This document shows, in pieces, positions 200 through 22,942 of a DNA stretch of 33,514 nucleotides. The notes below the pieces were generated by a model, which did not search any database, was not told the origin of the DNA, and saw only the letters and a program-made list of their open reading frames with translations. How positions within the stretch are numbered: position 1 is the stretch's first letter; each line of letters begins with the position of its first letter. Both the position numbers and the translations under genes were made by a program. The stretch comes from a virus (Duplodnaviria > Heunggongvirae > Uroviricota > Caudoviricetes): the IMG/VR virus record IMGVR_UViG_3300009502_000019; one strand, given 5' to 3'.

Positions 200-206
200 A
201 GATCCT

Positions 207-283
207 TGGTCTCCCCGGACCGGATCGAACGGTCGGCCTCCAGTGTAGGAAACTAGCGCTCTGTCCAACTGAGCTACGGGGAG
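207..283 (-). tRNA. trnR: tRNA-Arg(CCT)
   Basis: Cloverleaf CTCCCCG/CGGGGAG, anticodon loop TT-CCT-AC, T-loop TTCGATC, encoded CCA. Confidence 0.95.
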
Positions 284-284
284 T

Positions 285-361
285 TGGTGCCCTTGGGCAG
301 ATTCAAACTGCCAACCTCTTCCTTCGCAGGGAAGCGCTCTATTCAATTGAGCTACAGGGGC
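285..361 (-). tRNA. trnR: tRNA-Arg(GCG)
   Basis: Acceptor GCCCCTG/CAAGGGC (one mismatch), loop CT-GCG-AA, D-loop ..GA.., T-loop TTTGAAT, CCA. Confidence 0.9.
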
Positions 362-362
362 G

Positions 363-509
363 TTATTGTTCTTTTAAAGCTTTAATCAGATCCTTCTTGC
401 CCTTTGACCTAGAGAATGCCTTACCGCTAGGCACAACCCGAGTCTTTGGGTTGATCTCCCAACCGAACCTAGGTCGTACCTCAAGTAACTTCTTGTGCTG
501 CTTATTCAT
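363..509 (-). CDS. 48-aa basic hypothetical protein
   Basis: GGAGGAAG SD upstream; MNKQHKKLLEVRPRFGWEINPKTRVVPSGKAFSRSKGKKDLIKALKEQ* fills the gap between two tRNAs. Confidence 0.6.
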   Translation of the reverse strand: MNKQHKKLLEVRPRFGWEINPKTRVVPSGKAFSRSKGKKDLIKALKEQ

Positions 510-522
510 ACTTCCTCCGAAC

Positions 523-597
523 TGGTAGCGGAACCCGGAGCTGCCCCGGAACTTCTGGCTTATGAAACCAGCGCTCTTCTAGTTAAGCTATTCCGCC
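523..597 (-). tRNA. tRNA with CAT anticodon (elongator Met or Ile2)
   Basis: GGCGGAA/TTCCGCT, loop TT-CAT-AA, T-loop GGCAGCT, A73, CCA. Confidence 0.88.
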
Positions 598-601
598 ATA
601 T

Positions 602-680
602 TGGCTGGGCCTTCTTATTACAACCGTTTCGTCTCTGGTCGGCCTTTCAGAGCGTAATTTCACCCATTGCTACTCCTGCC
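602..680 (-). other. Unclassified CCA-terminated structured RNA candidate in tRNA array
   Basis: 79 nt ending GCCCAGCCA; possible helices TGGGT/GCCCA, ATTAC/GTAAT, CTCTG/CAGAG; no cloverleaf. Confidence 0.35.
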
Positions 681-702
681 AATTCGCTTTGGGCTTCGGA
701 TT

Positions 703-776
703 TGGTCCACCTGAGAGGTAATGCTCCTCCGTCGCCCGGTTATCGGCCGGGTGCTCTGCTATTGAGCTACAGGTGG
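703..776 (-). tRNA. trnI: tRNA-Ile(GAT)
   Basis: CCACCTG/CAGGTGG, loop CC-GAT-AA, T-loop AGCATTA, CCA. Confidence 0.9.
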
Positions 777-822
777 TAATGTCTACTCATCTCAAATGTC
801 CGGTCCACAACGGACGTTTCAT

Positions 823-917
823 TGGTACACGCGGAAGGACTTGAACCTTCATATTTAGCCAGTCCGGCCAATGACCCGGGTATAAACCGGGGGGTTTACC
901 AGTTAACCTACGCGTGC
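823..917 (-). tRNA. trnI: tRNA-Ile(TAT) with 24-nt variable region
   Basis: GCACGCG/CGCGTGT, stem CCCGG/CCGGG, loop TT-TAT-AC, V-arm TTGGCC-GGACT-GGCTAA, T-loop TTCAAGT, A73-CCA; 95 nt. Confidence 0.88.
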
Positions 918-1120
918 CTGTAACCACCTTCAAATTGTCTTACCGCTTCTCTTACTGCACGAACTGTTTGCTGACACATAACACAGCCAGCTATGTGCTG
1001 TTTCATTTTGATATGCCTGCTTTTGCTAAGCGAACCGTCTACGTATTCACCTAACGGCAGTCTACTGCACTTCTCTTCTTGAATGCAATACCACTTAAAC
1101 ACCACGTCCATATCGTCCAT
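908..1120 (-). CDS. Small zinc-finger protein, anti-sigma zf-HC2-like
   Basis: GGAGG SD; L.EYVDG.L...HIAGCVMC (H-x3-C-x2-C) motif. Confidence 0.65.
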   Translation of the reverse strand: MDDMDVVFKWYCIQEEKCSRLPLGEYVDGSLSKSRHIKMKQHIAGCVMCQQTVRAVREAVRQFEGGYRHA

Positions 1121-1277
1121 ACGACCCTCCTTTGGTTTTTATAGGTTACTGCTCTCACCTATATAGAGCCGCAAAGGGGGTACTTTATTACAAACTATTT
1201 TCAACTATTTTGTCGCAAATAGTAGCTACTTTTTCCGACAAACTTGTCACACTTCCGATGTGCTTTTCGTGACAAAC

Positions 1278-1353
1278 TGGTGGGAAGTGAAGGGCACGAT
1301 CCTTCAACCTTCTGCATGTCATACAGATGCTCTTCCAATTGAGCTAACTTCCC
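1278..1353 (-). tRNA. trnV: tRNA-Val(GAC)
   Basis: GGGAAGT/ACTTCCC, loop AT-GAC-AT, T-loop ATCGTGC, CCA. Confidence 0.9.
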
Positions 1354-1354
1354 C

Positions 1355-1430
1355 TGGTGCGTGATGAAGGACTCGAACCTTCGATATCCTGGATGTAGGC
1401 CAGGTGTCCTAGCCGCTGAACGAATCACGC
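1355..1430 (-). tRNA. trnV: tRNA-Val(TAC)
   Basis: GCGTGAT/ATCACGC, loop CC-TAC-AT, T-loop TTCGAGT, CCA. Confidence 0.93.
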
Positions 1431-1433
1431 GTA

Positions 1434-1511
1434 TGGCTGGGGAGGAAGGGATCGAACCTTCCTTATTCTCGGTTAACAGCCGAGCGCCTTCGCCCTGAAG
1501 ACTACTCCCCA
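1434..1511 (-). tRNA. trnN: tRNA-Asn(GTT)
   Basis: TGGGGAG/CTCCCCA, loop CT-GTT-AA, G73-CCA. Confidence 0.93.
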
Positions 1512-1512
1512 A

Positions 1513-1572
1513 TGGTGGACACCCTCAGAGTTGCACTGAGTTCTCCTGTGCTTCTATTACACCATAGCCGCC
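1513..1572 (-). pseudogene. Anticodon-arm-less tRNA remnant (60 nt)
   Basis: D-arm-like GTGT-AATAGA-AGCAC, perfect T-arm CTCAG-TGCAACT-CTGAG and ACCA end; anticodon arm missing, acceptor poorly paired. Confidence 0.7.
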
Positions 1573-1579
1573 ATAAAAC

Positions 1580-2086
1580 TTAACTCAAATACTTTTCCCA
1601 GAGATCCACTATTTCTCCGAGCTTAATTCTTACAATTTCACGAAATCCACGAGGCCTAGCTGGGGTCCTCATTAGCTTAAGCCCCGACTCAGCTAATGTT
1701 CTGTCATCCTTTGAGTAATTGCATGCTTTGCATGCAGTTACGGTGTTATCCCAGGAGTTTTTTCCACCCTTTGATTCCGGGATTACGTGGTCAATTGTCG
1801 TGTTCTTCGCGCCGCACTTTACACTACAGTATTGGCATTGATAATTATCTCGAAGATGCACGTTACGCTTTGTGTAAGAGACATAGCTGATCCTCTCGAA
1901 CACAACACGAACATATCTTTTGAGACGTATTACCGCCGGTACTTTCATAGTTTGACTAACTGAGTGTACTTCCTTATCGTATTCCTCAAGAACAACAGCC
2001 TTATCAGAGTATACAGCAGAGATTGCAGACTGCCAGTCACACACCCCAAGGAATTGGAAATCTAGGTTGAGCACTAAGCAGCGCAT
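1580..2086 (-). CDS. HNH endonuclease (McrA/HNH_5-like)
   Basis: RDNYQCQYC...TIDHVIPESKGGKNSWDNTVTACKACN. Confidence 0.9.
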   Translation of the reverse strand: MRCLVLNLDFQFLGVCDWQSAISAVYSDKAVVLEEYDKEVHSVSQTMKVPAVIRLKRYVRVVFERISYVSYTKRNVHLRDNYQCQYCSVKCGAKNTTIDHVIPESKGGKNSWDNTVTACKACNYSKDDRTLAESGLKLMRTPARPRGFREIVRIKLGEIVDLWEKYLS

Positions 2087-2763
2087 GTTGTTTTCTCCTT
2101 AAATTTATTAGTAAATAAATCTTTCCAATAGTTTCTGTTAAAGTTCGTTCGGCAATGACACTGTTTACAAAGACTAATTAGGTTACTTAATATGTTGTGC
2201 AACTTGTCATAATCAATGTGGTGCACATTCAAACTACAACCTAAAATAACTAAATGCTCTTCCTCTGTTAGACCACATAACTGGCACTGATAATTATCTC
2301 TTTTCCTAACAGACTCTTTTAGGGTGTTGTCAAATTCCGGTCCATATGGTAGGTTAAGCCCGCCAGTCCAATTAGGATTCTCAGGACCTATCCAACGCCC
2401 GTCATAGCACCCATTTTTCTTCTTAGTATCAACACTTTTCTGTACTGCTTCTTCTGATTTTCTCTTTCCAAGCTGTGCCTCTCGTACCCTTATTTTTTGG
2501 TATTCAGATCCATTTTTACCAAACATAGGGTTACTTGAGCCAACCAACTCTTTTCGTTTCGCACGACAAGCCGTGCACCCACAATCAAGTTTGTGTGTGC
2601 TCGTTCCGCCAGTCATTGTCTTTTCATAACAGGATCTGCATCTCTCCCAGGAACTTGTAACCTGAACTTCATGTCTCATACCACATCCTCCGAGGCACTC
2701 CCTGGTTTCTCGCAGCTTCCTGTCTTTTCTAATCTTACTTCGCTTATATACTCCCGTTGGCAT
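2074..2763 (-). CDS. HNH homing endonuclease with NUMOD-type DNA-binding region
   Basis: Likely start MPTGVYKR (AAGGA SD; the ORF-track extension overlaps a tRNA); NPMFGK motif; C-terminal CQLCG...LNVHHIDYDK..N..NLISLCKQCH. Confidence 0.85.
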   Translation of the reverse strand: MPTGVYKRSKIRKDRKLRETRECLGGCGMRHEVQVTSSWERCRSCYEKTMTGGTSTHKLDCGCTACRAKRKELVGSSNPMFGKNGSEYQKIRVREAQLGKRKSEEAVQKSVDTKKKNGCYDGRWIGPENPNWTGGLNLPYGPEFDNTLKESVRKRDNYQCQLCGLTEEEHLVILGCSLNVHHIDYDKLHNILSNLISLCKQCHCRTNFNRNYWKDLFTNKFKEKTTCAA

Positions 2764-2781
2764 AACAATCCTTTCGATCGT

Positions 2782-2856
2782 TGGTCGGAGTAGGGAATCT
2801 TGCAATCCCAACCTCTCGGTCCCGAACCGAGCGCTCTTCTTTTGAGCTACACTCCG
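2782..2856 (-). tRNA. trnP: tRNA-Pro(CGG)
   Basis: CGGAGTG/TACTCCG, loop TT-CGG-GA, T-loop TGCAAGA, CCA. Confidence 0.92.
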
Positions 2857-4208
2857 TTAAAAATATCCTGCTTTTCAGCGAGATACTTTAGATACACTTC
2901 TTTGTCTTCTCCGAGCTTTAGTTCCCCATTCGTCAGTGCCGCCATCACGAGATCCTTAAGCCTTCCAACCTCCTTACCTCCTGGAAGACTGAATCGCTCC
3001 ATGATAGACAGCCCGTCTAGTGGGCACTTAAGTTCTTTGTAGTTCTTTACTTCCTCGATCCTGTTCTTAAGGTGATCGATACGGGCTAGGTTCATTTGAA
3101 CCTTCTCTGGTCTATGGCTAGTAATATCAGCGGCACTCAGAGCGATCAGCTTGTCAAGATGGGCCCCGGTCTCGACAACGTACCTTCTTACCGCTGAATC
3201 TGACCAGTCTTCCTTGTACAGGTTCGTTCTCATGTGGTTCCGGACCAAGTACGTTACGTCCTCGATCACCTTCCGCGGCAGCCCGAGCCGACTCAAGATT
3301 GAATAAGCCATCAGAGCCGAAACCTCTTCGTGCCGGTAGAAGTGCACCCGTCCATCCCACTCAGTCTTAACGTAAGGCTTGCCGACGTCATGGAACAACG
3401 CTGCAAACCTTGAAGCTACTTCAGCCGGCGAGTTCTCAACTACTCCTACCGTATGAAGCCATACATTTTTGCTGTGGTACTTGCTGTCTTGGTCCACAGC
3501 ATTAAGTACCGTCAGCTCCGGGATGAAGTAATTGAGCAGCTTGTACTTCAGCAAGTCATTCAGAGCCTCACCAACGTACTTACCAAGCAGTATCTTGGTG
3601 AACTCGTCTAGGATTCGCTCCTTCGGCAGGAACAGAAGCCTGTGTGCTTCACTTGCTAAAGCCTCTCTTACTCCATCTGAATACAAAAACCCAAACCGCG
3701 ACTTGAACCGGATCGCCCTAAGCATCCTGAGCGGATCGTCGCTAAAGATCTCTGCCGCTTTCATAGGGGTCTCAAGGATCCCCTTTGCCAGGTGCTCCTT
3801 GCCTCCGAAGAGGTCTACTACCTCCCCATTTCGATCCATTGCCAGGGCATTGATCGTAAAGTCCCGGCGGATCAGGTCGTCCGCGATCGTTGTTCCCCAC
3901 TCCACAACCGGCCGGCGGTTATCCCTCTGGTACTTCTCGTTTTTTCTAAATGTAGTTGCTTGTATGATGTACCCATCCATAACAACTTCTATTGTTCCAA
4001 AGGCTTTTCCTACATCGTGTACTTTGTAACCTGCTTTTTGAAAGACCTTTTCAGTATCGTCTGGAAGAAGGTTAATAGCAAAATCCAGATCATCCGTGTC
4101 TTTTCCAAGCAGCTTGTCACGGACTGTGCCACCAACCAAGTATATGTCAGCGTCTTTGAATAGTGAAAATACCTTTTCTACTACCCTATCAGTGATAGTT
4201 TCAGGCAT
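2847..4208 (-). CDS. cca: CCA tRNA nucleotidyltransferase with HD domain
   Basis: YLVGGTVRD..DLDF, RRDFTINALA, DDPLRMLRAIRF, HT...FHDVGKP motifs of class II CCA/poly(A) polymerase family. Confidence 0.93.
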   Translation of the reverse strand: MPETITDRVVEKVFSLFKDADIYLVGGTVRDKLLGKDTDDLDFAINLLPDDTEKVFQKAGYKVHDVGKAFGTIEVVMDGYIIQATTFRKNEKYQRDNRRPVVEWGTTIADDLIRRDFTINALAMDRNGEVVDLFGGKEHLAKGILETPMKAAEIFSDDPLRMLRAIRFKSRFGFLYSDGVREALASEAHRLLFLPKERILDEFTKILLGKYVGEALNDLLKYKLLNYFIPELTVLNAVDQDSKYHSKNVWLHTVGVVENSPAEVASRFAALFHDVGKPYVKTEWDGRVHFYRHEEVSALMAYSILSRLGLPRKVIEDVTYLVRNHMRTNLYKEDWSDSAVRRYVVETGAHLDKLIALSAADITSHRPEKVQMNLARIDHLKNRIEEVKNYKELKCPLDGLSIMERFSLPGGKEVGRLKDLVMAALTNGELKLGEDKEVYLKYLAEKQDIFNGV

Positions 4209-4906
4209 CTTTTTACCGCTGCTTTCTGTAGTACTTGGTTAACTTCTGGACTTCTGCCTAATGTCCATCCGGTGCTTAAATAGTGCAATACTTGTTCTTT
4301 GCGTACGAGCCGGCTCTCTTTTGTTTTTAAATTATGTATGTGTTTCCGCCCAATATGTGCAAGCCTGTTCTTCTCTGTTTGATCTTGTGGCTTTGTTCGG
4401 CCACGTTGCACTTTGCTATTTTTGTTTCTTATTTCAACCGCCCTGTCCACCCCATACTTCTCTGAATAAGTTTTACCTTTGTACTCCCCACGCTTGTACA
4501 TGCAGAAACAACAGATGCAAGTGTCTTCATTGTGCCCGAGTGCTGATAGTGTTTTCCCGACCCGTGCTTCGGACACCCATGGTTTAGGGCCACTCTTTCT
4601 CAGCTTGGTTTCCTCTGAGTCAGGTCCCCATGCTCCGTTTCCGCCGACTGTAATATTGTAACCGGTAGCTCTATCTGTAGAATTAAATTCAGCAATATAC
4701 TTTCTTTCCAAGCGGTCTGCGTCCTCTTGGTTCTGTGCTGTTGCTAGTGTTTCTCGTGTAAAGCCACCTTTTCCATGTTCTTTTATTGCAATTTTTAACA
4801 GTTTTCCGCTTCCAAGATATCCAGGTCTTGCATAGCCAAATTTCTGACCAATGTACACTTTACCGTTAAATTTATTGGTTGTTTTATATATAATCCACTC
4901 ACTCAT
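4181..4906 (-). CDS. GIY-YIG homing endonuclease
   Basis: Likely start MSEWIIYKTTNKFNGKVYIGQ (AAGG SD); YLGSG, GYNIT motifs; NUMOD3-like SEETKLRKS. Confidence 0.88.
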   Translation of the reverse strand: MSEWIIYKTTNKFNGKVYIGQKFGYARPGYLGSGKLLKIAIKEHGKGGFTRETLATAQNQEDADRLERKYIAEFNSTDRATGYNITVGGNGAWGPDSEETKLRKSGPKPWVSEARVGKTLSALGHNEDTCICCFCMYKRGEYKGKTYSEKYGVDRAVEIRNKNSKVQRGRTKPQDQTEKNRLAHIGRKHIHNLKTKESRLVRKEQVLHYLSTGWTLGRSPEVNQVLQKAAVKRCLKLSLIG

Positions 4907-4920
4907 ATCATGCCTTTCAT

Positions 4921-4994
4921 TGGCTGACCTGCAGGGATTCGCACCCCAATTTTTCGGTTCAGAGCCGAACGTCCTACTGTTGGACGACAGGTCA
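4921..4994 (-). tRNA. trnQ: tRNA-Gln(CTG)
   Basis: TGACCTG/CAGGTCA, loop CT-CTG-AA, T-loop TGCGAAT, G73-CCA. Confidence 0.92.
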
Positions 4995-4998
4995 ATGT

Positions 4999-5073
4999 TG
5001 GTCGGGGTGGTGAATTTTGAAATCACGACCTCTCGCTCCCAAAGCGAGCGCTCTGCCTCTGAGCTACACCCCG
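4999..5073 (-). tRNA. trnP: tRNA-Pro(TGG)
   Basis: CGGGGTG/CACCCCG, loop TT-TGG-GA, CCA. Confidence 0.94.
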
Positions 5074-5084
5074 AAATTAACTAC

Positions 5085-5097
5085 ATTTTAAAGAACA
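5085..5097 (-). promoter_or_regulatory. boxA-like antitermination element
   Basis: TGTTCTTTAAAAT in spacer between tRNA-Gln(TTG) and tRNA-Pro(TGG). Confidence 0.55.
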
Positions 5098-5103
5098 ACA
5101 CAT

Positions 5104-5177
5104 TGGCTGGCGATGGAGGTACCGCCCCTCCGCCTCAAGGTTCAAAGCCTCGCACGCTGCTATTACGCCAATCGCCA
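5104..5177 (-). tRNA. trnQ: tRNA-Gln(TTG)
   Basis: TGGCGAT/ATCGCCA, loop CT-TTG-AA, T-loop GGCGGTA, CCA. Confidence 0.9.
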
Positions 5178-5178
5178 T

Positions 5179-5254
5179 TGGTGGGCTCGGCGGGCAATGA
5201 TCCCGCAACCTTCTCCTTAAGAGGGAGTTGCTCTGCCAATTGAGCTACGAACCC
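5179..5254 (-). tRNA. trnK: tRNA-Lys(CTT)
   Basis: GGGTTCG/CGAGCCC, loop CT-CTT-AA, T-loop ATCATTG, CCA. Confidence 0.92.
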
Positions 5255-5259
5255 AATAC

Positions 5260-5336
5260 TGGTGCGTCCGGCAGGAATCGAACCTACTCTTGGTCCTGGT
5301 TAAAAGCCAGGCGTCTACCCAGTCGACTTCGGACGC
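5260..5336 (-). tRNA. trnK: tRNA-Lys(TTT)
   Basis: GCGTCCG/CGGACGC, loop CT-TTT-AA, T-loop TTCGATT, CCA. Confidence 0.92.
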
Positions 5337-5341
5337 TTATG

Positions 5342-5773
5342 TTACGCAATTCTCATTACTCTAGTTGGTCTTCCTCTGCCTTTGTTTCTTGACCCATAAA
5401 ACTCTGTTAATGTGTGGCAGTTAGGGCAAAGTAGTTCTAGATTTTCTTCACGGTTGTTTTTCCAGTTACCGTCCTTATGCTCAATCTGCAAAGGAACTTT
5501 TCCTGTATAGATGTTAACCTCTGACCATTCGCATTTCGAGCACTTGCTTTTGTACTTCTCAAACAAATATTTTCTTACATGCCCAGAGATGGAGGAGACT
5601 CCTTTTCCACCATTCTCTAGCCCCTGCTTCCATCGACGTATGTACAAATCATATGCAGTCTTATTTTTAACTCTGACCACATGTCTGTTTCCACACATAC
5701 GAGAACAAAATAGCCGATGACATTTCCTAGAAGAAAACTCTTTTTTACATTCGTTACATACATATGTATGCAT
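5342..5773 (-). CDS. HNH endonuclease
   Basis: Likely start MHTYVCNEC (GAGG SD; the ORF-track extension overlaps tRNA-Cys); LQIEHKDGNWKNNREENLELLCPNCH. Confidence 0.87.
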   Translation of the reverse strand: MHTYVCNECKKEFSSRKCHRLFCSRMCGNRHVVRVKNKTAYDLYIRRWKQGLENGGKGVSSISGHVRKYLFEKYKSKCSKCEWSEVNIYTGKVPLQIEHKDGNWKNNREENLELLCPNCHTLTEFYGSRNKGRGRPTRVMRIA

Positions 5774-5787
5774 TATATTACCCTCAG

Positions 5788-5874
5788 TGGAGACGGCTGT
5801 CGGACTTGCACCGACGTGTGGATTGCTCCAACAGGTTTTGCAGACCTGCACATTCGCTGCTCTGTCAAGCCGTC
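5788..5874 (-). tRNA. trnC: tRNA-Cys(GCA) with long variable arm
   Basis: GACGGCT/AGCCGTC, loop CT-GCA-AA, U73, V-arm TGGA-GCAA-TCCA, T-loop TGCAAGT; 87 nt. Confidence 0.88.
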
Positions 5875-5875
5875 A

Positions 5876-5964
5876 TGGAAGCGGAGATGGGAGTTGCACC
5901 CATCAGCTGCTTTTGGCAGCTCCGGCTTATGAGACCGGTTAGCCCACTGGGGCTCGTCTCCGCA
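5876..5964 (-). tRNA. Non-canonical CAT-anticodon tRNA with long V-arm and 5-bp D-stem
   Basis: (T)GCGGAG/CTCCGC(T), D-arm AGCCC-CAGT-GGGCT, loop CT-CAT-AA, V-arm AGCTGC-CAAAA-GCAGCT, T-arm ATGGG-TGCAACT-CCCAT, U73-CCA. Confidence 0.8.
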
Positions 5965-5974
5965 ATGAATAATA

Positions 5975-5988
5975 CTTTTCAAAAAACA
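5975..5988 (-). promoter_or_regulatory. Degenerate boxA-like element
   Basis: TGTTTTTTGAAAAG, one core mismatch to TGTTCTTTGAAAA. Confidence 0.35.
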
Positions 5989-5991
5989 AAC

Positions 5992-6065
5992 TGGCGGGCC
6001 AGCAAGGTGACGCTCCCTGGTCTTCGGTTTTGGAGACCGACGTTCTACTGTTGAACTACTGACCC
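5992..6065 (-). tRNA. trnW: tRNA-Trp(CCA)
   Basis: GGGTCAG/CTGGCCC, loop CT-CCA-AA, T-loop AGCGTCA, G73-CCA. Confidence 0.9.
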
Positions 6066-6073
6066 ATAACTTT

Positions 6074-6164
6074 TGGCGGTGGGTAGACGAGTCGAACGCC
6101 TAAAGGGCTATTAACCCTTAACCGGGTTCAAGCCGGTCGGACCTGCCAATGTACCAAACCCACC
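6074..6164 (-). tRNA. trnS: tRNA-Ser(TGA)
   Basis: GGTGGGT/ACCCACC, loop CT-TGA-AC, long V-arm, G73-CCA. Confidence 0.9.
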
Positions 6165-6174
6165 ATTTTATTAC

Positions 6175-6247
6175 ATCGGCAAACATCGCCAACTTTCGAT
6201 CTTTGCCGATCTGCTACTGCACAATAACATATCTAATGTTATCGTGC
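6175..6247 (-). other. Tandem stable hairpins in tRNA spacer (possible small RNA or processing signal)
   Basis: 12-bp GCACGATAACAT/ATGTTATTGTGC hairpin, 8-nt linker, 9-bp ATCGGCAAA/TTTGCCGAT hairpin. Confidence 0.4.
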
Positions 6248-6252
6248 GTTAC

Positions 6253-6339
6253 TGGCGGAAGAGGTAGGTGCTGCCCCTACAAGCCTTTTACAGCTCCCGT
6301 TTTCGAGACGGGTGAGCTCTCTAACTGCTCAGCTCTTCC
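6253..6339 (-). tRNA. trnS: tRNA-Ser(CGA)
   Basis: GGAAGAG/CTCTTCC, loop CT-CGA-AA, V-arm, T-loop GGCAGCA, G73-CCA. Confidence 0.9.
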
Positions 6340-6340
6340 T

Positions 6341-6427
6341 TGGCGGAGGAGGTGGGGTACGATCCCACATGCCTTTTACAGCACCCGCGTTCCAGGCGGG
6401 CGAGCCACCAAATTGCTCAACTCCTCC
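6341..6427 (-). tRNA. trnS: tRNA-Ser(GGA)
   Basis: GGAGGAG/CTCCTCC, loop CT-GGA-AC, V-arm, T-loop ATCGTAC, CCA. Confidence 0.92.
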
Positions 6428-6429
6428 AT

Positions 6430-6520
6430 CGGCGGAAGACGTCGGTGCTGCCCCGACCAGACGTTTGCACGTCTCCAACTTAGCAGGTTGGCCCAGCTAA
6501 CTGATATCTGGCTGTCTTCC
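6430..6520 (-). tRNA. trnS: tRNA-Ser(GCT), genomic 3' end CCG
   Basis: GGAAGAC/GTCTTCC, loop CT-GCT-AA, V-arm AGACGT-GCAA-ACGTCT, T-loop GGCAGCA. Confidence 0.9.
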
Positions 6521-6528
6521 ATAAAAAT

Positions 6529-6813
6529 ATTTGAGAACTATAACCCGGGTTCTGTAGTTACCTTTCAGTAACTGCTAATCATCTGTCTAAGCTCCAAACC
6601 CGCTACTATTGACTGAGTAAGTCAGTAGCCTATTTTGGATTGCATCATGCAAGGATTGCCAACGTTTCACTCCCACTAAAGGGTTTCGTCACTGTGGCTC
6701 TATACTCTCAGTCTTTCAACTGGTCAAAGTTATTAGCTTTGATGCACTACTCTTGATGCCCGGAGTTTCCTCGAATATCCATTGCAGATACCCGCGATTA
6801 GCCGTTCTCAAAT
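6529..6813 (-). ncRNA. rnpB: RNase P RNA (compact bacterial-type)
   Basis: P1 ATTTGAGAAC/GTTCTCAAAT; P4 strands GAGGAAACTCCGGGC (6772-6758) and ACAGAACCCGGGTTA (6555-6541) with a compensatory C-G; GCCACAG, GTGAAAC, GGCAATCC, CAAAATAGG and AGACAGATGAT conserved blocks in the right order. Confidence 0.9.
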
Positions 6814-7490
6814 TTTACTTTAATGCATCCACAATTAAACATCCTACCTCGTATCCATCCTTCTTTCGTATAACCTTGAAGTGCGTCTTCTGTAACAAGT
6901 TTAGATTGGTGTAGTTTTACATTTGAAATCCACTTCTTACCCTTCCAGCTGTTCCGATTTTTTCCGTTAGTACAACCCCCCGATCCTGGAAAAAACTTTC
7001 TACCTCTTATCCAACCATTATTGATATAGTCTGAAAACTCTTCTTTATTAGCCCATCTAGATTGTTTTAATTGTAAGTTAGATATCCACTTGTGCTCTGC
7101 CGTTCGTCCAACTTTTCCAAACATTCCATTCTTTTTACCCGCATGATTTCCATGACTAGCACTTTCTTTCATCTTCTTTCTAGTTTCTTCTGAAGCTTTC
7201 CAACCAGGACAACCGTCTCCGCCATCAGCTAGGTTATATACGTTATCTTTTCCAATGTAATTTCTGCACTCAGCGACATACTTTATTTCTAGCATGTCTA
7301 ATGTAATTTTATCATTAGCATACTCTATTGCTTTTACACGAAAATTATGTTTACCGTACTTTTTGATGGCTTGCTTTAAGTAAGATCCACTACCAAAATA
7401 TTTAGGATTAAACTTACCTTTCTTTTGACCAACATACAGTTTACCATTGACCAAGTTAGTAGTCAGATAAACATATCCGTACATGTTCAT
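6798..7490 (-). CDS. GIY-YIG homing endonuclease
   Basis: Likely start MNMYGYVYLTTNLVNGKLYVGQ (GGAG SD); YFGSG, YNL..GG, SEETRKKM; two C-terminal KWISN...GWIRGR repeats. Confidence 0.88.
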   Translation of the reverse strand: MNMYGYVYLTTNLVNGKLYVGQKKGKFNPKYFGSGSYLKQAIKKYGKHNFRVKAIEYANDKITLDMLEIKYVAECRNYIGKDNVYNLADGGDGCPGWKASEETRKKMKESASHGNHAGKKNGMFGKVGRTAEHKWISNLQLKQSRWANKEEFSDYINNGWIRGRKFFPGSGGCTNGKNRNSWKGKKWISNVKLHQSKLVTEDALQGYTKEGWIRGRMFNCGCIKVKFENG

Positions 7491-7500
7491 AGCACACTCC

Positions 7501-7527
7501 AAAAAAAGAAGGGCACCTTTCGGGTGC
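7501..7527 (-). terminator. Intrinsic terminator-like hairpin in leader of GIY-YIG gene
   Basis: GCACC-CGAAA-GGTGC followed by CCTTCTTTTTTT. Confidence 0.5.
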
Positions 7528-7612
7528 TTGTAGGATATCCGGTTATGGCTATCCAACCCTACGGGTGCCCTAAAAATAGGCATAAAAATACCGAAGTCCT
7601 ACAAGCAACTGC

Positions 7613-7641
7613 ATTATACCGCGTTTTGGAGCAAAAGTCAA
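7613..7641 (-). promoter_or_regulatory. sigma70-type promoter P2
   Basis: TTGACT-17 bp-TATAAT. Confidence 0.85.
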
Positions 7642-7660
7642 GAACTATTTCAAATTAAAT

Positions 7661-7734
7661 TGGCGGTCCATGGGAGAATTAAACTCCCGCTTTAAGCGTG
7701 ACAAGCTTACGTGCTATCACTACACCAATGAACC
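7661..7734 (-). tRNA. trnD: tRNA-Asp(GTC)
   Basis: GGTTCAT/ATGGACC, loop TT-GTC-AC, T-loop TTTAATT, G73-CCA. Confidence 0.9.
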
Positions 7735-7748
7735 ATTTTCAAAGAACA
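7735..7748 (-). promoter_or_regulatory. boxA antitermination element
   Basis: TGTTCTTTGAAAAT, matching the rrn-type boxA seen in many bacterial rRNA leaders/spacers. Confidence 0.65.
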
Positions 7749-7821
7749 GGTAGCGCATAACGGTACTGCCCCGATGTCTCCTGGCTGAGAACCAGACGTC
7801 CTTCTTTTAGACGAATGCGCC
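7748..7821 (-). tRNA. trnE: tRNA-Glu(CTC), genomic 3' end CCT
   Basis: GGCGCAT/ATGCGCT, loop TT-CTC-AG, T-loop GGCAGTA. Confidence 0.88.
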
Positions 7822-7828
7822 ATACAAC

Positions 7829-7943
7829 GTGAGCGAGAGGTATTCTATAACTGGCGTGCTGCTGTTACACTAAACGGCCGAGGCCGCTGCGGAGTTGAAC
7901 CGCTCCTCCAGTTCCATGAGTGTTAGGAACCTCTTATGCCCAC
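7829..7943 (-). ncRNA. YrlA-like Y RNA (circularly permuted tRNA mimic)
   Basis: Order T-arm (GCGG-TTCAACT-CCGC), loop-closed acceptor-like stem (AGCGGC-CTCG-GCCGTT), D-arm (GTGT-AACAGCA-GCAC); closed by AACTGG/CCAGTT and terminal helices GTGGGC/GCTCAC, AGAGGT/ACCTCT with a bulged-C segment GGTTCCTA/TAGAATACC. Confidence 0.78.
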
Positions 7944-8017
7944 TGGTAGGGGTAGACGGTACTGACCCGTCGTTTCCTGGGTGAAAACCAGGTGACCTGC
8001 CTTTAGTCGATACCCCC
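7944..8017 (-). tRNA. trnE: tRNA-Glu(TTC)
   Basis: GGGGGTA/TACCCCT, loop TT-TTC-AC, T-loop GTCAGTA, CCA. Confidence 0.9.
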
Positions 8018-8021
8018 GTAT

Positions 8022-8126
8022 AAAAACAAAAAGACCGATCCTGTCTAACCGAGCCCGAGAACCGTTGTTTCTGGTCGCTTCGGGTTTGGTTAGATATTAT
8101 CGGTCTTATAACTACCCGAAGCGACC
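8022..8126 (-). terminator. Attenuator candidate: mutually exclusive terminator / antiterminator
   Basis: Terminator base AAGACCGAT(8107-8099)/ATCGGTCTT(8039-8031) plus TTTGTTTTT; competing 13-bp GGTCGCTTCGGGT(8126-8114)/ACCCGAAGCGACC(8085-8073). Confidence 0.6.
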
Positions 8127-8227
8127 TGTGAGCGTGTGCCCACGAGACAAAAGGATGGCGTCGCCCACAAGGGCATACGCCCTTGCCTGGCCAGCAATCC
8201 TAATATGCGTTCGTGTTTTAGCTTCAC
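8090..8227 (-). CDS. 45-aa putative leader peptide
   Basis: GGAG SD + GTG; MKLKHERILGLLARQGRMPLWATPSFCLVGTRSQVASGSYKTDNI*, ending inside the attenuator hairpins. Confidence 0.5.
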   Translation of the reverse strand: MKLKHERILGLLARQGRMPLWATPSFCLVGTRSQVASGSYKTDNI

Positions 8228-8282
8228 CTGTTGCTCCGTGTAGTGGAAATCTAAATTGTACTCTTTTTAACTTTGAGGCACT

Positions 8283-8311
8283 AGCCTAGCACAAAAAGCC
8301 CTGTGTGTCAA
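8283..8311 (-). promoter_or_regulatory. sigma70-type promoter P1 heading the tRNA array
   Basis: TTGACA-17 bp-TAGGCT; shares upstream AAATAGTTCTTGAC with P2. Confidence 0.75.
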
Positions 8312-8324
8312 GAACTATTTTAAA

Positions 8325-9275
8325 CTATTTTTTGATGCTCCGGATGATATCTAGGAGCTGACCTGTCCGCACGTCATTAGAGTGATGCTTACGTATATGG
8401 GCCATCCCATTAGCTGCAATGCCCCTAGCGAACTCTCTATCAGCTAATATCTTAGCCGCTAAGCTAACAAGATCCGACTGGTCCTTCTTAAACTTTACGC
8501 ACGTGCCATCTGGAAAAATCTCATCAATACCTGAGAACATGTCAGTGAGTAGAACTGCTCCTGATGACATTATCTCAAATGTCTTCGCAGCGGTTATATC
8601 ATAAATCGAGCTGCATGACAAGAACGCGATGTTTTTCTTTAGAACATTTATGTACCCCTCATCCACGATCATCCTGTAGTTAACGATGTAATCATAATTC
8701 GATAACGTCTGAATAGCCCTGTTTCTGTCCGGGTATGCTGTGTTAACAGAGCTGCCAACAAATGCTATTTTGTTAACTCTGTCGATCGATACTGGTGCAA
8801 ACACTTCGGTATCTACGGAGAATGGAAGCCACGCGTTTGGTACTTTTCCTTTGCGAAGGAACTGTGAGTGGTGACGCTGCAGCAGCAGATCAAACCCCTT
8901 CTCCTTATACCAGTCGTCGTTCTTTTCGTAGTGGTAGTCTTCCTCTATCATTATCTTCGGTTCTTTGATCTCTTCGAATCCGCTTGGTATCCAACAGTTC
9001 TTTTGAACACCGGTGTGTGGCGAATAAGACTCAAACATGCGGCTCTTTGTGTTGCATATGACTGCGTCATACGGAAACATGGCTTTTAAGTCGTACATGG
9101 TAATCTTACTGTCGTACGGGATCGTAGCTACGTCAGCGTACCCCTTCTCAAGGTCCATCCCGTATGCAAGCAGCTTTACTCCAGGGTACTTAGCGATGGT
9201 ACGTGCGTACTCCATGTGAAACCACTTGTCGAAGTTGTATTCGGGTATGTACTTATAGAACCAAAGTATGTTCAT
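8325..9275 (-). CDS. Glycosyltransferase, CgeB/Glyco_trans_1_2-like
   Basis: GT-B C-terminal AKTFEIMSSGAVLLTD...IRKHHSNDVR; paralogue of 14776..15756. Confidence 0.75.
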   Translation of the reverse strand: MNILWFYKYIPEYNFDKWFHMEYARTIAKYPGVKLLAYGMDLEKGYADVATIPYDSKITMYDLKAMFPYDAVICNTKSRMFESYSPHTGVQKNCWIPSGFEEIKEPKIMIEEDYHYEKNDDWYKEKGFDLLLQRHHSQFLRKGKVPNAWLPFSVDTEVFAPVSIDRVNKIAFVGSSVNTAYPDRNRAIQTLSNYDYIVNYRMIVDEGYINVLKKNIAFLSCSSIYDITAAKTFEIMSSGAVLLTDMFSGIDEIFPDGTCVKFKKDQSDLVSLAAKILADREFARGIAANGMAHIRKHHSNDVRTGQLLDIIRSIKK

Positions 9276-10153
9276 CGAAATGTCCCAAAGATGGCTTTGT
9301 GTACTTTCGGCCAGACCTGAACTTCATTTAGAAGGATGTGCCTGGCTTCTGACAGTTCTGGCAGGTGCTCTTCATAGAACCTGCTGTTTATGATATTTCT
9401 TACGTCGTCCCCGTGCCCGTTGATGTCGAGGTACTTAAACGAGGTAGCCGGTAGAACTTTGTGGACTCCGCGCCCTCCCCAGTAGATCGGCATAGCCCAG
9501 AGAAGCATGCAGTCAAGGATCCTCTCTGAGAAGTAGTGCTCGCCAACATTGTCAAACTCAAGCATGTATTTGTACTGCTCATACACAGGCTCTTTTCCGG
9601 ACCAGTAGTCTCCGGCATGCTGCACTGAGTACTGCCCGCAGGCCCCTTTGTAATGTGAAACAAGACTTCCGAATGGCCGTATTCGTCCGTAGATGTCTAG
9701 AATACCCGGGTTCTGTGAGCACATACGCTCCAAGAACTCTCTCCTGACTCTGTGGCTGTCGTCGCTAGAAGAGTTGCTTACGATCGTACCAAGTAGCTTC
9801 GTCTTTGGCATTGGCTGCAATTTAGACAGGTAATCGTAATCATAGGTAATCCACCACTCCAAAAACCCTAACGTATGTTTACAATCAAACTTTGCTAAGG
9901 CATTAAACCCATCCATGTCTTGGTAGTACTTGAGCGTCTCCGGGTGTGCTCCGAGAAACACACACTTGTTCTCCGGAATGTGGCTGTAGTCTGACGTTAG
10001 CTTGTCAATTACGGCGTAGCAGTCCGCTTCATCCAGATTACCCGTTCCAACAAGGTTCCCCCAGACGCCTGAGCGCCCGGGGGTCATCTTGCGAAAGGTA
10101 TCCAGGAGCTTTTGGGGCTGTTCACTGTTACCTATGAACGCCAGTTTTTTCAT
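9272..10153 (-). CDS. GT10 (alpha-1,3-fucosyltransferase)-like glycosyltransferase
   Basis: YKYMLEFDN...YFSERILD...AMPIYWG resembles the GT10 nucleotide-sugar motif. Confidence 0.7.
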   Translation of the reverse strand: MKKLAFIGNSEQPQKLLDTFRKMTPGRSGVWGNLVGTGNLDEADCYAVIDKLTSDYSHIPENKCVFLGAHPETLKYYQDMDGFNALAKFDCKHTLGFLEWWITYDYDYLSKLQPMPKTKLLGTIVSNSSSDDSHRVRREFLERMCSQNPGILDIYGRIRPFGSLVSHYKGACGQYSVQHAGDYWSGKEPVYEQYKYMLEFDNVGEHYFSERILDCMLLWAMPIYWGGRGVHKVLPATSFKYLDINGHGDDVRNIINSRFYEEHLPELSEARHILLNEVQVWPKVHKAIFGTFR

Positions 10154-10818
10154 GGGTTTTCCAGTTTTAGAAGTTTTCTGAAATACTTGTCCATAACCAA
10201 AAGTATTTTTACTTTTGGGTACAGTTTTTTAAATAGTTCGAACTTTTCCTTATCCGGTCCCCTCCAAAATCCTTTAAATTCTATATATGTACACATCATC
10301 GGAGTGTAAAAATCTGGGGTGTAGGTACTATCTCCCAAGTCAAATACCTTCGGTTCGTATTCCCATACTACCTTTTTACGGTCTAAGTATTCAGCAAAAG
10401 CTGCTTCTCGTTTTGATCGAAACCGTACTCCATTGTAGAATATACGCTTTCCGTGGTGAGCTATTTTACCAAACATGGGGTTGTTTTTTCCAGACATCCG
10501 TAGACTTTGGCTAGGATTTGGAACCCCAGCTCGACAGCATTTTCTACACTTTGAATACTTAACCTTCCCTTTTCTAAAAGCATACTTGCTTAAAAGAACA
10601 CCACATCCAGTGCAATGGACTTTTGGGTTCTTTCGTAGCAAGTACATATGATACCTGCAATGTTTTGCAATTTTGCTTTTTAAAGAGTCTCCGCAGACCC
10701 TACACTTTTTATGAATAGATTTTTTATACCCAGGGTGGTTCTTGCCAACATATAGACCGTTCTTCGCACTACAGATACAACAAGAACAGCCCTTCTTATG
10801 CGGATTTGAATTACCCAT
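10150..10818 (-). CDS. Free-standing PD-(D/E)xK endonuclease with Cys-rich/NUMOD N-terminus
   Basis: Likely start MGNSNPHKK (coupled to licD stop); FRSKREAAFAEYLD...WEYEP...YTPDFY..IEFKG. Confidence 0.75.
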   Translation of the reverse strand: MGNSNPHKKGCSCCICSAKNGLYVGKNHPGYKKSIHKKCRVCGDSLKSKIAKHCRYHMYLLRKNPKVHCTGCGVLLSKYAFRKGKVKYSKCRKCCRAGVPNPSQSLRMSGKNNPMFGKIAHHGKRIFYNGVRFRSKREAAFAEYLDRKKVVWEYEPKVFDLGDSTYTPDFYTPMMCTYIEFKGFWRGPDKEKFELFKKLYPKVKILLVMDKYFRKLLKLENP

Positions 10819-11425
10819 TGTTAATATTGTACTTTTTATTCTTATTAGGAGTACGCCAGTTTTTGTCATACATAAGTTCAAGCCACTCCTCGATGTGGTT
10901 CGGGATCTTGAACGTGACACCCCGGAATACGAAGTCTTGAAGCTCATCGTAGTACCTCGCCGGGTGCTTCAGCTGATACCCGCAACGCGGCTTATCATAG
11001 ACGTAATAGTCACCTTCCTTCTCAAACCACCATCCCTCGATCTTCTCCCCGTTACGAATGAAATTCGTGTCGTAATAAGGGGCGTTGTCGTTTGTGATCG
11101 GCTTTGTTGGATCCCCCTCGGTGACGATGTACCCGGCAGCCCGCATTTCGTCGATAACGGGGTAGATACGTGTCCTTTGTGAGAAGTCGAGAGCAATGTC
11201 CACGTCATCGTCCCAGGCGATGAAATTCTGGTCCCGGTAGGCGCCAAGCATCGTTCCGTGCGACAGCCAATGCTTGATTCCGTGCTTGGTCAAGCAGGCG
11301 CTGACCTCGCAAAGGTTGTTAAACAGAGCATCCCTATCGATAGGGCGGGTACGGCCCCCTGCCTGACCTCGTTCCCATATCGGTAAATGTTTGCTCCAAA
11401 TATCTAAATTGGGGTTCAGATCCAT
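10811..11425 (-). CDS. licD: LicD-family nucleotidyl/phosphotransferase
   Basis: WLSHGTMLGAYRDQNFIAWDDDVDI motif. Confidence 0.85.
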   Translation of the reverse strand: MDLNPNLDIWSKHLPIWERGQAGGRTRPIDRDALFNNLCEVSACLTKHGIKHWLSHGTMLGAYRDQNFIAWDDDVDIALDFSQRTRIYPVIDEMRAAGYIVTEGDPTKPITNDNAPYYDTNFIRNGEKIEGWWFEKEGDYYVYDKPRCGYQLKHPARYYDELQDFVFRGVTFKIPNHIEEWLELMYDKNWRTPNKNKKYNINNG

Positions 11426-11964
11426 TACGCGCCTCGCTTCCTTTCTGAGAAAACTACACCTTCCAGTTCAAGCACCGACACGTTCAATCCCTCGCAGATA
11501 TCGCGTACGTGCTGAACACACTTGAAGAACTCATCGTTGTCCTTCTTAACGTTTAGATACAAGTCTTCCTTGTCGAGCATGAGCATCTTTATACCACAAT
11601 CATAGATGATTTCACCAAGCCTTTTGATGCCCATTTTGGTCTCGATCTTGGGAACGAACTGCACGGTGGGCGGGAGCTTCGCCTGGATCTCCTTCACAAT
11701 GCTGACCTTCTCGATGTTCGATACCGCGAAGTACTTTACGTTCTTCCACTTCGCACATAGGTCGTAGGCTGTTTCCATAGCAATAACAGGGGTCGGGGGC
11801 TTTGTCCTGCCCTGGGGGTAGTCAAGAAAGACATCCTTGTCCTCGTTAGTCTTTAGAATCTGCTCCAGTTCCTCGACAGTATTAACCCAAGCCATGTTGA
11901 TACGAATGACAGAGTCGTTTGGAAGTGCCATGTATTTCTGTAGGTTATTTGATACGATTATCAT
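11425..11964 (-). CDS. Minimal pyruvate-kinase-barrel / HpcH-like protein
   Basis: IRINMAW, FLDYPQGRTK, FVPKIET, LMLDKEDL align by eye to PK barrel motifs (RLNFSH, LDTKGP, KIE, MVARGDL); no B/C domains. Confidence 0.55.
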   Translation of the reverse strand: MIIVSNNLQKYMALPNDSVIRINMAWVNTVEELEQILKTNEDKDVFLDYPQGRTKPPTPVIAMETAYDLCAKWKNVKYFAVSNIEKVSIVKEIQAKLPPTVQFVPKIETKMGIKRLGEIIYDCGIKMLMLDKEDLYLNVKKDNDEFFKCVQHVRDICEGLNVSVLELEGVVFSERKRGA

Positions 11965-12220
11965 TTTTCTTTACCCTTATGTAGAGAGTTATGTAAAAGA
12001 CAGTTGTTAAAATTGCGATCACGTACTTTATTACGAGAGGGTTTTGCCGGATGAGGATGGCATACCAAAGGGCGATTACGTTGCCGACCAGGTACATAAC
12101 GTACAGGAGTAGACTCACGCCATCGACGCACTTGGTTTTCACCGTCTTTATGATCTGAGGCACAATCACCACAGAGAATATTACAGTTGCCGTCCATCCA
12201 AGAATATCAGGTAGGCTCAT
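11945..12220 (-). CDS. PQ-loop (SemiSWEET-like) membrane protein
   Basis: Three hydrophobic helices, PQIIKTVKTKCVDGVS. Confidence 0.8.
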   Translation of the reverse strand: MSLPDILGWTATVIFSVVIVPQIIKTVKTKCVDGVSLLLYVMYLVGNVIALWYAILIRQNPLVIKYVIAILTTVFYITLYIRVKKNDNRIK

Positions 12221-12611
12221 TTTTTATCCGCTCAATTATTTTAGATGTTGATGTGCCGTCATACCTGGACAAGTTTAGGCGCTTTGATTCCGGTATTTCA
12301 TAAAGATTTGCTATGTGATGCTGGTCTTCTCCGACTACGATCAGGTCGCACGTATCGAGAATGTCTTTAGGTATGCGAAACTCGTCCACTCCAACGGTCT
12401 CTCGGACACATCCGAGAGCGCTTATGATAGCCATGCGTTCGTCAAAAGGAACTATGGGACGCGATGGCCCTTTCTGGCGCTTTACGGCTTCATCAGTAAC
12501 AACTCCGACAATAAGCCACCCTTCTCCGCTCCCCTGGTAGGCATTATACAGTAGGTTCAAGTGGCCGAAGTGGAACAGATCCCATACCCCCAAGCAAAAT
12601 ACTTTTTTCAT
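12207..12611 (-). CDS. HxGH cytidylyltransferase (TagD/RfaE-II-like)
   Basis: GVWDLFHFGHLNLL, KGPSRPIVPFDER, GTSTSKII. Confidence 0.88.
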   Translation of the reverse strand: MKKVFCLGVWDLFHFGHLNLLYNAYQGSGEGWLIVGVVTDEAVKRQKGPSRPIVPFDERMAIISALGCVRETVGVDEFRIPKDILDTCDLIVVGEDQHHIANLYEIPESKRLNLSRYDGTSTSKIIERIKNEPT

Positions 12612-12612
12612 G

Positions 12613-13569: not shown

Positions 13570-14133
13570 TTAGATACTCTCTCTATACACTTGTTCAAGC
13601 CGGAGTCTTATTTTTGTTGCTTGGCGAAGTATTCGGTCTTTGTTTCTGTCCTTTATCTTCTTAATAGGAACACCCGCGTATACGGACCACGGGTCAAGTT
13701 TCGAGAATGCCGGAACCCAACTAAGCCCTCCAATAACTGTTCCCTCAGGTATCACCGTTCCTGGCATTATGACGGAGTTAGTTCCTACACCACAGTAGTC
13801 TCCGATAGTCACATCTCCAGAGCACATCTCCATACCAATGTCGTAGTCTGGCGCTAATATAACAAGGTCATTAACGAAGTCGTTACTGCCACAATAGATC
13901 TTCACGCCGGATGCGATCGACCCGAAGTCACCCATTGTAAACTGCCTGTCTTTTCCTCCAGCGATAACGCAGGATGCCGCTACGTGAGACATCATCCCGA
14001 TCTTTACCTTAGTAGAGAAGTAACAAAAGTCGTCCACTACGGAGTGGTCTCCAACGACAAAGAACTCCGGATGTCTGATACGCGTGTTACTAGATACAAT
14101 GTTCCTGATGCGCATACCGTTAGATAGCATCAT
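13570..14133 (-). CDS. Hexapeptide-repeat (left-handed beta-helix) acyltransferase
   Basis: Likely start MMLSNG (GGAG SD); VTIGDYCGVGTNSVIMPGTVI, VYAGVP. Confidence 0.85.
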   Translation of the reverse strand: MMLSNGMRIRNIVSSNTRIRHPEFFVVGDHSVVDDFCYFSTKVKIGMMSHVAASCVIAGGKDRQFTMGDFGSIASGVKIYCGSNDFVNDLVILAPDYDIGMEMCSGDVTIGDYCGVGTNSVIMPGTVIPEGTVIGGLSWVPAFSKLDPWSVYAGVPIKKIKDRNKDRILRQATKIRLRLEQVYRESI

Positions 14134-19945: not shown

Positions 19946-19948
19946 ATG

Positions 19949-22558: not shown

Positions 22559-22560
22559 TG

Positions 22561-22893: not shown

Positions 22894-22942
22894 AGTGGCC
22901 TCACTCTATATTACGGCTGTTTCAAGAAAAAATTATGAAATA

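Follow-up and report, generated by a model that had tools for sequence, protein, structure and literature searches.

The virus record IMGVR_UViG_3300009502_000019 encodes a reduced bacterial type A RNase P RNA (rnpB) inside an array of transfer RNA (tRNA) genes, together with a CCA-type tRNA nucleotidyltransferase and a circularly permuted tRNA-like RNA. We analysed 33,514 nucleotides of it (hereafter the window), corresponding to the minus strand, positions 8187-41700, of the single 46,801-base IMG/VR virus record, which is ~40% complete. On the grounds of sequence comparison, the identities of the parts, their phage context, the conserved gene order and structural selection on rnpB are directly supported. 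Beyond this, we consider it likely that the array is read from host-type promoters into shared precursors, which would be matured by an RNase P composed of phage RNA and host protein and finished or healed at their 3' ends by the CCA/HD enzyme. An initial annotation of this DNA had listed 24 tRNA genes (a full Ser set and paired Glu, Lys, Gln, Pro, Val, Ile and Arg isoacceptors), rnpB and a CCA/HD enzyme, all of which were confirmed, the tRNAs by a check of each gene; it left unmentioned five endonuclease genes in the span and the extension of the array by seven tRNAs past the window start. Window features described below lie on its minus strand. Among the relatives, L005/G001, L007/G002 and L098/G003 are paired labels of the same lineages; the others are L006, L185, L188, L189 and L199.

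A reduced RNase P RNA in the tRNA array

The rnpB gene (6525..6813, 289 nt) matched the Rfam model RF00010 with 134.2 bits (cut-off 100, E 3e-41). Helices P1-P11, a short hairpin P12, P15-P17 and P19 are present, the P6 pseudoknot included, while P13, P14 and P18 are lacking, with just 2 and 0 bases standing in for 43 and 24 model positions, respectively. The C68-G358 pair in P4 is compensated (C68, G358 and U69 follow E. coli numbering), and P4 has the arrangement expected of conserved regions (CR) I, IV and V with a bulged U69. Each of the seven phage copies has kept all eight P4 pairs, U69, CR-IV and the GGU of L15, which pairs with the 3'-RCC of tRNA; at five of the P4 pairs the bases differ. 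CR-II deviates from the Rfam consensus in every copy, the specificity (S) domain is reduced and the natural variants span 263-290 nt. It should be added that the copy of L188 (7940-8315) has an intact catalytic domain and a longer, rewritten and unrecognisable specificity domain, scoring 71 bits, below the cut-off.

In seven of nine lineages (window, L185, L005, L007, L188, L189 and L199), the gene occupies the same slot, flanked by tRNA-Asp and tRNA-Ser(GCT). In an alignment of five related copies at ~69% column identity, 94.7% of cells pair and 37 of the 66 pairs, P4 included, have changed on both sides, which is strong support but not a probability. None of 500 shuffles was as good, and slid partners gave at most nine such pairs, in a comparison that favours real pairing over the slid controls, the structure having been mapped from the window copy. 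Judged by this covariation, the fold of rnpB is under selection.

Since no match to RnpA (PF00825) was found in the window record or in two complete relatives, the simplest reading is that the phage RNase P RNA probably uses the RnpA of the host. Searches of sequence collections for similar RNAs were performed as well. With blastn, rnpB had no match among 50,697 GenBank phages, and two P4-spanning patterns found nothing among viral contigs, where at least one relative was nevertheless located by other means, so that such blanks mean little. The pattern applied to a genome collection matched only a cellular rnpB, that of Ca. Actinomarina, a longer RNA with P13/P14-type helices retained. A full-text literature search, with most subscription journals outside its coverage and hence no proof, returned no paper on a phage or viral RNase P RNA.

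Phage origin and conserved order of the array

The record was assigned to a phage because it is colinear with the complete relative G001 (215 kb), which encodes a T4-type major capsid protein (E 3.7e-33). The two genomes have baseplate-region and glycosylation genes in common (42-61% identity) in the same arrangement, and the single array of G001 holds all its tRNAs in the order seen in the window. No capsid or terminase gene was found in the 46.8-kb record itself, the hallmark genes being seen in the colinear relative, and the terminase family PF03237 had no match in three relatives. An identical copy of the CCA protein is present on contigs of up to 202,599 bases, and its closest homologues sit on contigs of 175-216 kb; contig scans revealed no rRNA or ribosomal-protein context. 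By these comparisons, the source DNA is a phage of ~200 kb from a clade with a T4-like capsid, and the possibility that it is an ordinary cellular chromosome, on which the initial annotation had made its reading depend, was set aside. The metagenome runs containing at least half of the stretch are of freshwater or lake origin; no RNA dataset is listed among them, which speaks neither for nor against expression.

The order of the array is near-constant in all eight related lineages, namely Glu, Asp, Ser, Trp, Cys, Lys, Gln, Pro, His, Tyr, Ala, Gly, Thr, Phe, Asn, Val, Ile, Arg and Leu. In three relatives a transfer-messenger RNA (tmRNA) comes after Asn.

The CCA/HD enzyme and other RNA-processing genes

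The nucleotidyltransferase (2847..4208, 453 aa) is of class II CCA type, with an HD domain and intact catalytic residues. Its best family is TIGR02692 (actinobacterial type, E 1.6e-100), at 337 bits, below the equivalog cut-off of 438.8, and its nearest solved structure is the Bacillus CCA enzyme (PDB 1miv). The DxD and RRDFT motifs, the templating motif and the flexible loop are intact, and no poly(A) polymerase signature is present; the catalytic aspartates and the HD residues H252, H273, D274 and D361 are invariant in 33 homologues. Those homologues at 50-75% identity that were looked up belong mostly to phage-type tRNA arrays. A single-sequence CCA scan returned nothing and a metagenome scan only distant CCA enzymes (31-40%).

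CCA is encoded by 22 of the 24 window tRNA genes. The two exceptions, Ser-GCT (CCG) and Glu-CTC (CCT), had been noted earlier as defective ends; the ends are real, the defect is not, because, in relatives that also have the enzyme, the share of tRNA genes with an encoded CCA ranges from 1/31 (L007) to 27/28 (L189). By this comparison, they are normal variation rather than damage.

RtcB ligase is encoded ~8 kb past the last tRNA and a HAD_SAK_2 protein ~6.5 kb past it, both on the opposite strand; RtcB is also present in both complete relatives. Among the further genes suggested at the outset as worth seeking on the contig, RtcB was thus recovered, in contrast to a TROVE (Ro60) gene and the missing isoacceptors; the contig proteins that were scanned included no tRNA synthetase and no modification enzyme. 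It should also be added that RtcB of this phage has 719 aa, compared with ~415-437 aa in relatives (ENA ERZ1426631 gene list), which suggests an intein or a fusion. L001 (4294-4596, minus strand, opposite to the array) gave a weak match to PTH2 peptidyl-tRNA hydrolase (E 6.7e-4).

tRNA gene content and the trace of a deletion

The whole array has 31 tRNAs, 24 of them within 207-8017 of the window and seven (Arg-TCG, Arg-TCT and five Leu) past window base 1. tRNAs for His, Tyr, Ala, Gly, Thr and Phe are absent, as is tmRNA, and the six amino acids concerned account for 33.7% of codons in 28 window genes. In the closest sister (CCA enzyme ~75% identical), exactly these six fill the 2.86 kb from the conserved HNH gene to tRNA-Asn. 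The window has in this place an anticodon-less chimera of 60 bases (1513..1572), with the 5' part of a tRNA-His and the 3' part of a tRNA-Phe, which reads as the scar of a ~2.8-kb deletion; it comprises a D arm and a T arm, has no anticodon arm, and its acceptor is mismatched. The 5' part matches the tRNA-His of L199 at 27 of 30 bases and starts seven bases past the HNH stop, like His in the sister, and the nine bases at the 3' end are identical to the end of the sister's tRNA-Phe. Compared with the L185 tRNAs alone the 3' half is ambiguous (Ala 20/34, Phe 19/34), and it was assigned to Phe because of its position and the shared ends. The two parts overlap by three bases where they join, which points to microhomology. 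In contigs from two studies the scar is spanned without differences, so that it is no assembly error.

According to the comparison with relatives, the tRNAs of all six amino acids were lost in a single deletion. No second tRNA cluster was found in G001 or in the 9.7 kb upstream of the record. Since the lineage lost these tRNAs and yet persists, we infer that the pool supplements the tRNAs of the host and does not replace them. Persistence in this state fits topping up, or evasion of host tRNA cleavage (PMC10264068), better than wholesale replacement.

For detection, ARAGORN with default settings gave 15 tRNAs and Rfam supplied more; all candidates were then checked individually, and every one of the 24 genes has 6-7 of 7 acceptor pairs. 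From the 5' end of the array, the genes are tRNA-Glu(TTC) (7944..8017; Rfam and acceptor-pair check), tRNA-Glu(CTC) (7748..7821; Rfam), tRNA-Asp(GTC) (7661..7734; ARAGORN and Rfam) and four tRNA-Ser within 6074..6520 (GCT 6430-6520, GGA 6341-6427, CGA 6253-6339, TGA 6074-6164), followed by tRNA-Trp (5992-6065), tRNA-Met(CAT) with a 1:72 mismatch and a long variable arm (5876-5964) and tRNA-Cys, also with a long variable arm (5788-5874). Then come tRNA-Lys(TTT), Lys(CTT), Gln(TTG), Pro(TGG) and Gln(CTG) (4921..5336), tRNA-Pro(CGG), which overlaps the stop codon of the CCA gene (2782..2856), tRNA-Asn(GTT), Val(TAC) and Val(GAC) (1278..1511; ARAGORN), tRNA-Ile(TAT) with a long variable arm (823-917), Ile(GAT) (703-776) and Met(CAT) (523-597), and finally tRNA-Arg(GCG) and Arg(CCT) (207..361).

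Several of these genes are of unusual type. The Met and Cys genes at 5876-5964 and 5788-5874 have counterparts with short variable arms in the same slots of L185, and in L005 and L188 the Met of the initiator slot is long. The tRNA-Ile with UAU anticodon is common to most relatives, ATA making up 35% of Ile codons in the window genes; such a tRNA would bypass lysidine modification. The GCG anticodon of tRNA-Arg (285-361), rare in bacteria, is also found in L005 and L006, and other relatives have ACG.

A permuted tRNA-like RNA and its putative partner protein

Between the two tRNA-Glu genes lies a circularly permuted tRNA mimic of 114 nt (7829..7942), recognised from its fold and by comparison. 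A T arm, an acceptor hairpin of six pairs capped by a tetraloop, and a D arm are enclosed in a terminal helix with a conserved bulged handle. Copies are present in L185 and L199, and T, acceptor and anticodon-side pairs are compensated across the three copies. The element had been labelled a Y RNA; the permuted topology of YrlA was borne out, the family was not. RF02553 did not match it at E<=10 (the genome's own RF02553 matches overlap tandem tRNAs), the Ro60-binding motif GNCGAAN0-1G has two core mismatches in all three copies, and no Ro60/TROVE gene (PF05731) was matched in the window contig or three relatives. On fold and comparison, the RNA is therefore YrlA-like in topology and of a family other than YrlA. 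Readings of it as an RNase P substrate or as a permuted tRNA gene of the splicing type were also considered and rejected, as the acceptor hairpin ends in a tetraloop (in the sister, UUCG) and the RNA cannot form an anticodon loop. In L005 (6612-6731) and L188 (7664-7778), the same slot holds a different, pseudoknot-type RNA with no Rfam match.

The handle recurs in tandem short hairpins directly 5' of a gene for a ~630-aa protein in G001 and G003, and in L199/L200 the series of handle units ahead of this gene ends with a permuted tRNA. Out of 24 viral contigs with matches to the handle pattern, nine have the ~630-aa gene in the fetched stretch; in the complete relative G002 the gene is absent, and no handle RNA was seen in its fetched stretch. 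The protein family counts more than 2,300 members, including one on the sister contig of 216 kb. Sequence searches of Pfam, PHROG and PDB gave no match. In the structural model (P0168, pLDDT 89) the C-terminal domain is TerD-like (Z 10.9, root-mean-square deviation (rmsd) 3.1, 146 aligned). The similarity of the helical part to the Ro60 of phage phiLo (Z 5.4, rmsd 7.3, 202/266 residues) is within background, and Foldseek gave no match for this part at E<=0.001. From the co-location, the handle probably binds the ~630-aa phage protein, and by analogy the permuted RNA, though no YrlA, may work like a Y RNA.

Promoters, leader RNA, endonucleases and neighbouring genes

A sigma70-type promoter with a perfect -35 hexamer and a weak -10 was read from the sequence at 8283..8311. 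It is below the scan threshold; L005 and L185 have near-consensus promoters in the same slot, and the site probably drives the array. The promoter scan also returned an internal sigma70-type promoter (7613..7641, 11/12) ahead of a GIY-YIG gene and rnpB. The initial annotation was hence right that the island is co-directional, all on a single strand, and less so in treating it as one unit, as there is this internal site besides the upstream one. Past the internal promoter and ahead of the GIY-YIG start lies a stable hairpin with a U-tract (7500-7600, z -2.9), which may lower expression of the endonuclease.

Directly before tRNA-Glu(TTC), a conserved RNA of two hairpins ends in a U-tract (8018..8260, fold z -6.5). 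It has no Rfam match and occupies the same slot in eight lineages (window, L005, L006, L007, L098, L185, L188 and L189). The 3' strand of hairpin 1 pairs either with its own 5' end or within the terminator-like hairpin 2. For the alternative pairing, 0, 2, 26, 35, 48, 65 and 216 of 1000 shuffles were as good, so that it beats shuffles in most cases, not in all, and an attenuator-type leader is possible. Candidates such as 6S or signal recognition particle RNA were rejected, having no Rfam support and a poor consensus fold across five sequences. Before its array, L005 has an end-paired 220-nt RNA (5345-5567) and an RNA with tRNA-like ends around a ~100-nt insert (5650-5830).

The five endonuclease genes within the array span (two GIY-YIG, three HNH) vary in presence between sisters. 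One GIY-YIG gene (6798..7490, start inferred from the ribosome-binding site) is inserted between tRNA-Asp and rnpB, has its stop in the first 16 bases of rnpB and is absent from this slot in relatives; the other (4181..4908, start inferred) overlaps the start of the CCA gene. Two HNH genes are lineage-specific insertions: at 5342..5773, where Cys and Lys adjoin in L185, and at 2074..2811, which a sister contig skips with the joint at 2086-2781. The third HNH gene (1580..2086) is kept in its slot in most relatives and is 67% identical to that of G001.

Upstream of the array (8325-26547), glycosyltransferase, LicD, cytidylyltransferase, aminotransferase, epimerase and methyltransferase genes form a long run, several with homologues in G001, which probably serves virion glycosylation. 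The 57-kb contig L006 has the same tRNA order and a CCA gene, no rnpB, and relaxase, primase-helicase and HipA genes nearby; its array has possibly moved onto a conjugative element.

Proposed function and alternative explanations

In the mechanism we favour, host-type promoters would transcribe the array as polycistronic RNAs, and RNase P RNA and tRNAs would be released from shared precursor transcripts. The phage RNA would assemble with host RnpA and raise the 5'-processing capacity, which might be useful when the host enzyme is burdened by ~30 new tRNA genes or when the host RNA is destroyed. The CCA/HD enzyme, to judge by its family, would complete or heal tRNA 3' ends, the resulting pool would top up host tRNAs, and the permuted RNA would act as a tRNA mimic whose handle, associated with the gene of a ~630-aa phage protein encoded elsewhere, probably binds that protein. 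We regard as an even call the more specific proposal that the clade encodes an active, minimised RNase P ribozyme, cut from its own tRNA operon and working with host protein, as well as a Y-RNA-like mimic bound by a TerD-fused phage protein other than Ro60. Several points weigh against the favoured mechanism. Any host brings its own RNase P and CCA enzyme; rnpB is missing from the L006 and L098 arrays and is thus dispensable for some relatives; the covariation comes from a small sample of kin, with the bias of its controls described above; with CCA encoded on nearly all genes, de novo CCA addition is rarely needed here; and the ~630-aa gene is not in the 46.8 kb of the window genome, its presence being taken from the sister contig.

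The main rival, to which we assign a low probability, holds that the RNase P RNA is a folded decoy or modulator, which would titrate host RnpA or shift its specificity to phage tRNAs with non-standard T loops. The off-consensus CR-II of every copy, the reduced S domain, its rewriting in L188 and a standard T loop in just 12 of the 27 scored tRNAs of the window array would agree with this; the catalytic-core pairs, U69 and the L15 GGU, however, are kept with compensation, beyond what a decoy needs. Odd T loops are also found in the arrays lacking rnpB (8/19 standard in L098, 18/26 in L006), which leaves no clean link, and an association of rnpB with odd T loops was dropped as unsupported. We consider it improbable that rnpB is a neutral hitch-hiker, acquired with host tRNA genes and now decaying, even if two of the nine lineages no longer have it in the array, three of its helices are gone and a GIY-YIG gene overlaps its 5' end: compensatory change is dense at the observed column identity, seven lineages share the slot, and the loss of P13, P14 and P18 is known from Candidate Phyla Radiation (CPR) bacteria, in some of them in the sole RNase P RNA (PMC8172020).

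There is similarly little to be said for a self-contained replacement kit, in which the island alone would make and repair a full tRNA pool, as the initial annotation had proposed. Sister arrays do have tRNAs for all 20 amino acids, some with tmRNA and RNA ligase inside; in the window array, though, the tRNAs of six amino acids were deleted and tmRNA is absent, no RnpA was found, RtcB lies outside the array on the other strand, and synthetases and modification enzymes are lacking among the contig proteins scanned. For this island the self-contained reading is largely refuted; what survives of the proposal is the phage origin and the idea of tRNA supply and maturation, without the completeness of the kit. 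Least probable, indeed very much so, is a tRNA array of a cellular chromosome or plasmid. The record is classed in IMG/VR as provirus, 40% complete, without capsid or terminase gene, and the CCA homologue of L006 is near relaxase and HipA genes; colinearity with a capsid-encoding phage, the long contigs of the closest CCA homologues and the lack of ribosomal context speak against it. Supply of tRNAs with maturation by phage RNA and host protein is thus the explanation we retain.

Comparison with known systems

The tRNA region of phage T4 holds the GIY-YIG homing endonuclease SegB. As in T4, free-standing GIY-YIG and HNH genes lie between the tRNAs and differ among sister phages; the window array is far larger and includes rnpB. 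The CCA/HD enzyme resembles class II CCA enzymes (TIGR02692, 1miv) in nucleotidyltransferase motifs and HD residues, with a score below equivalog level. The deletion from His to Phe offers a natural experiment on why phages carry tRNAs, since this lineage has survived the loss of the tRNAs that serve a third of its codons.

YrlA RNAs have been recorded in 22 phages and have the T arm, acceptor hairpin and D arm in this order within a terminal bulged helix (Chen 2014, PMC4201824). Domain order and terminal bulged helix are common to the YrlA/Rsr/Ro60 system and the permuted RNA, which differs in lacking the RF02553 match, Ro60 motif and TROVE gene, in its other handle and in its co-location with a ~630-aa protein, helical and TerD-like. 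If true, the pairing of handle RNA and 630-aa protein would mean that the Y RNA principle also holds for a second protein family.

The phage RNase P RNA is like E. coli M1 and RF00010 type A in P4 with the bulged U, the P6 pseudoknot, P15-P17 and L15 GGU, and shares the loss of P13, P14 and P18 with the reduced RNase P RNA of CPR (Lui 2021, PMC8172020). It differs from type A in being virus-encoded, within a tRNA array and with no rnpA found, in the P4 swaps beside the bulged U and in an altered CR-II. RNase P RNA counts as a hallmark of cells, and bacterial genomes are checked for completeness by its presence (PMC8172020); if the phage RNA is active, phages would supply tRNAs, repair enzymes and the maturing ribozyme. 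Its natural length variants, with pairs swapped next to the catalytic U, lend themselves to testing what the ribozyme cannot do without.

Arrays of jumbo or huge phages contain dozens of tRNAs, a CCA-adding enzyme, RtcB and other ligases, tmRNA and PTH2 (Al-Shayeb 2020, PMC7162821; Iyer 2021, PMC7824862), and RNase P occurs nowhere in the main text of either paper. The initial annotation had considered the full processing kit unusual; the kit of tRNAs, CCA enzyme and ligase is already known from jumbo phages, and the virus-encoded RNase P RNA is the unusual part. The same combination of tRNAs, CCA enzyme and RtcB is found here in a phage genome of ~200 kb, whereas the clade of the window is set apart by a fixed, amino-acid-sorted order of tRNA genes with rnpB in a fixed slot.

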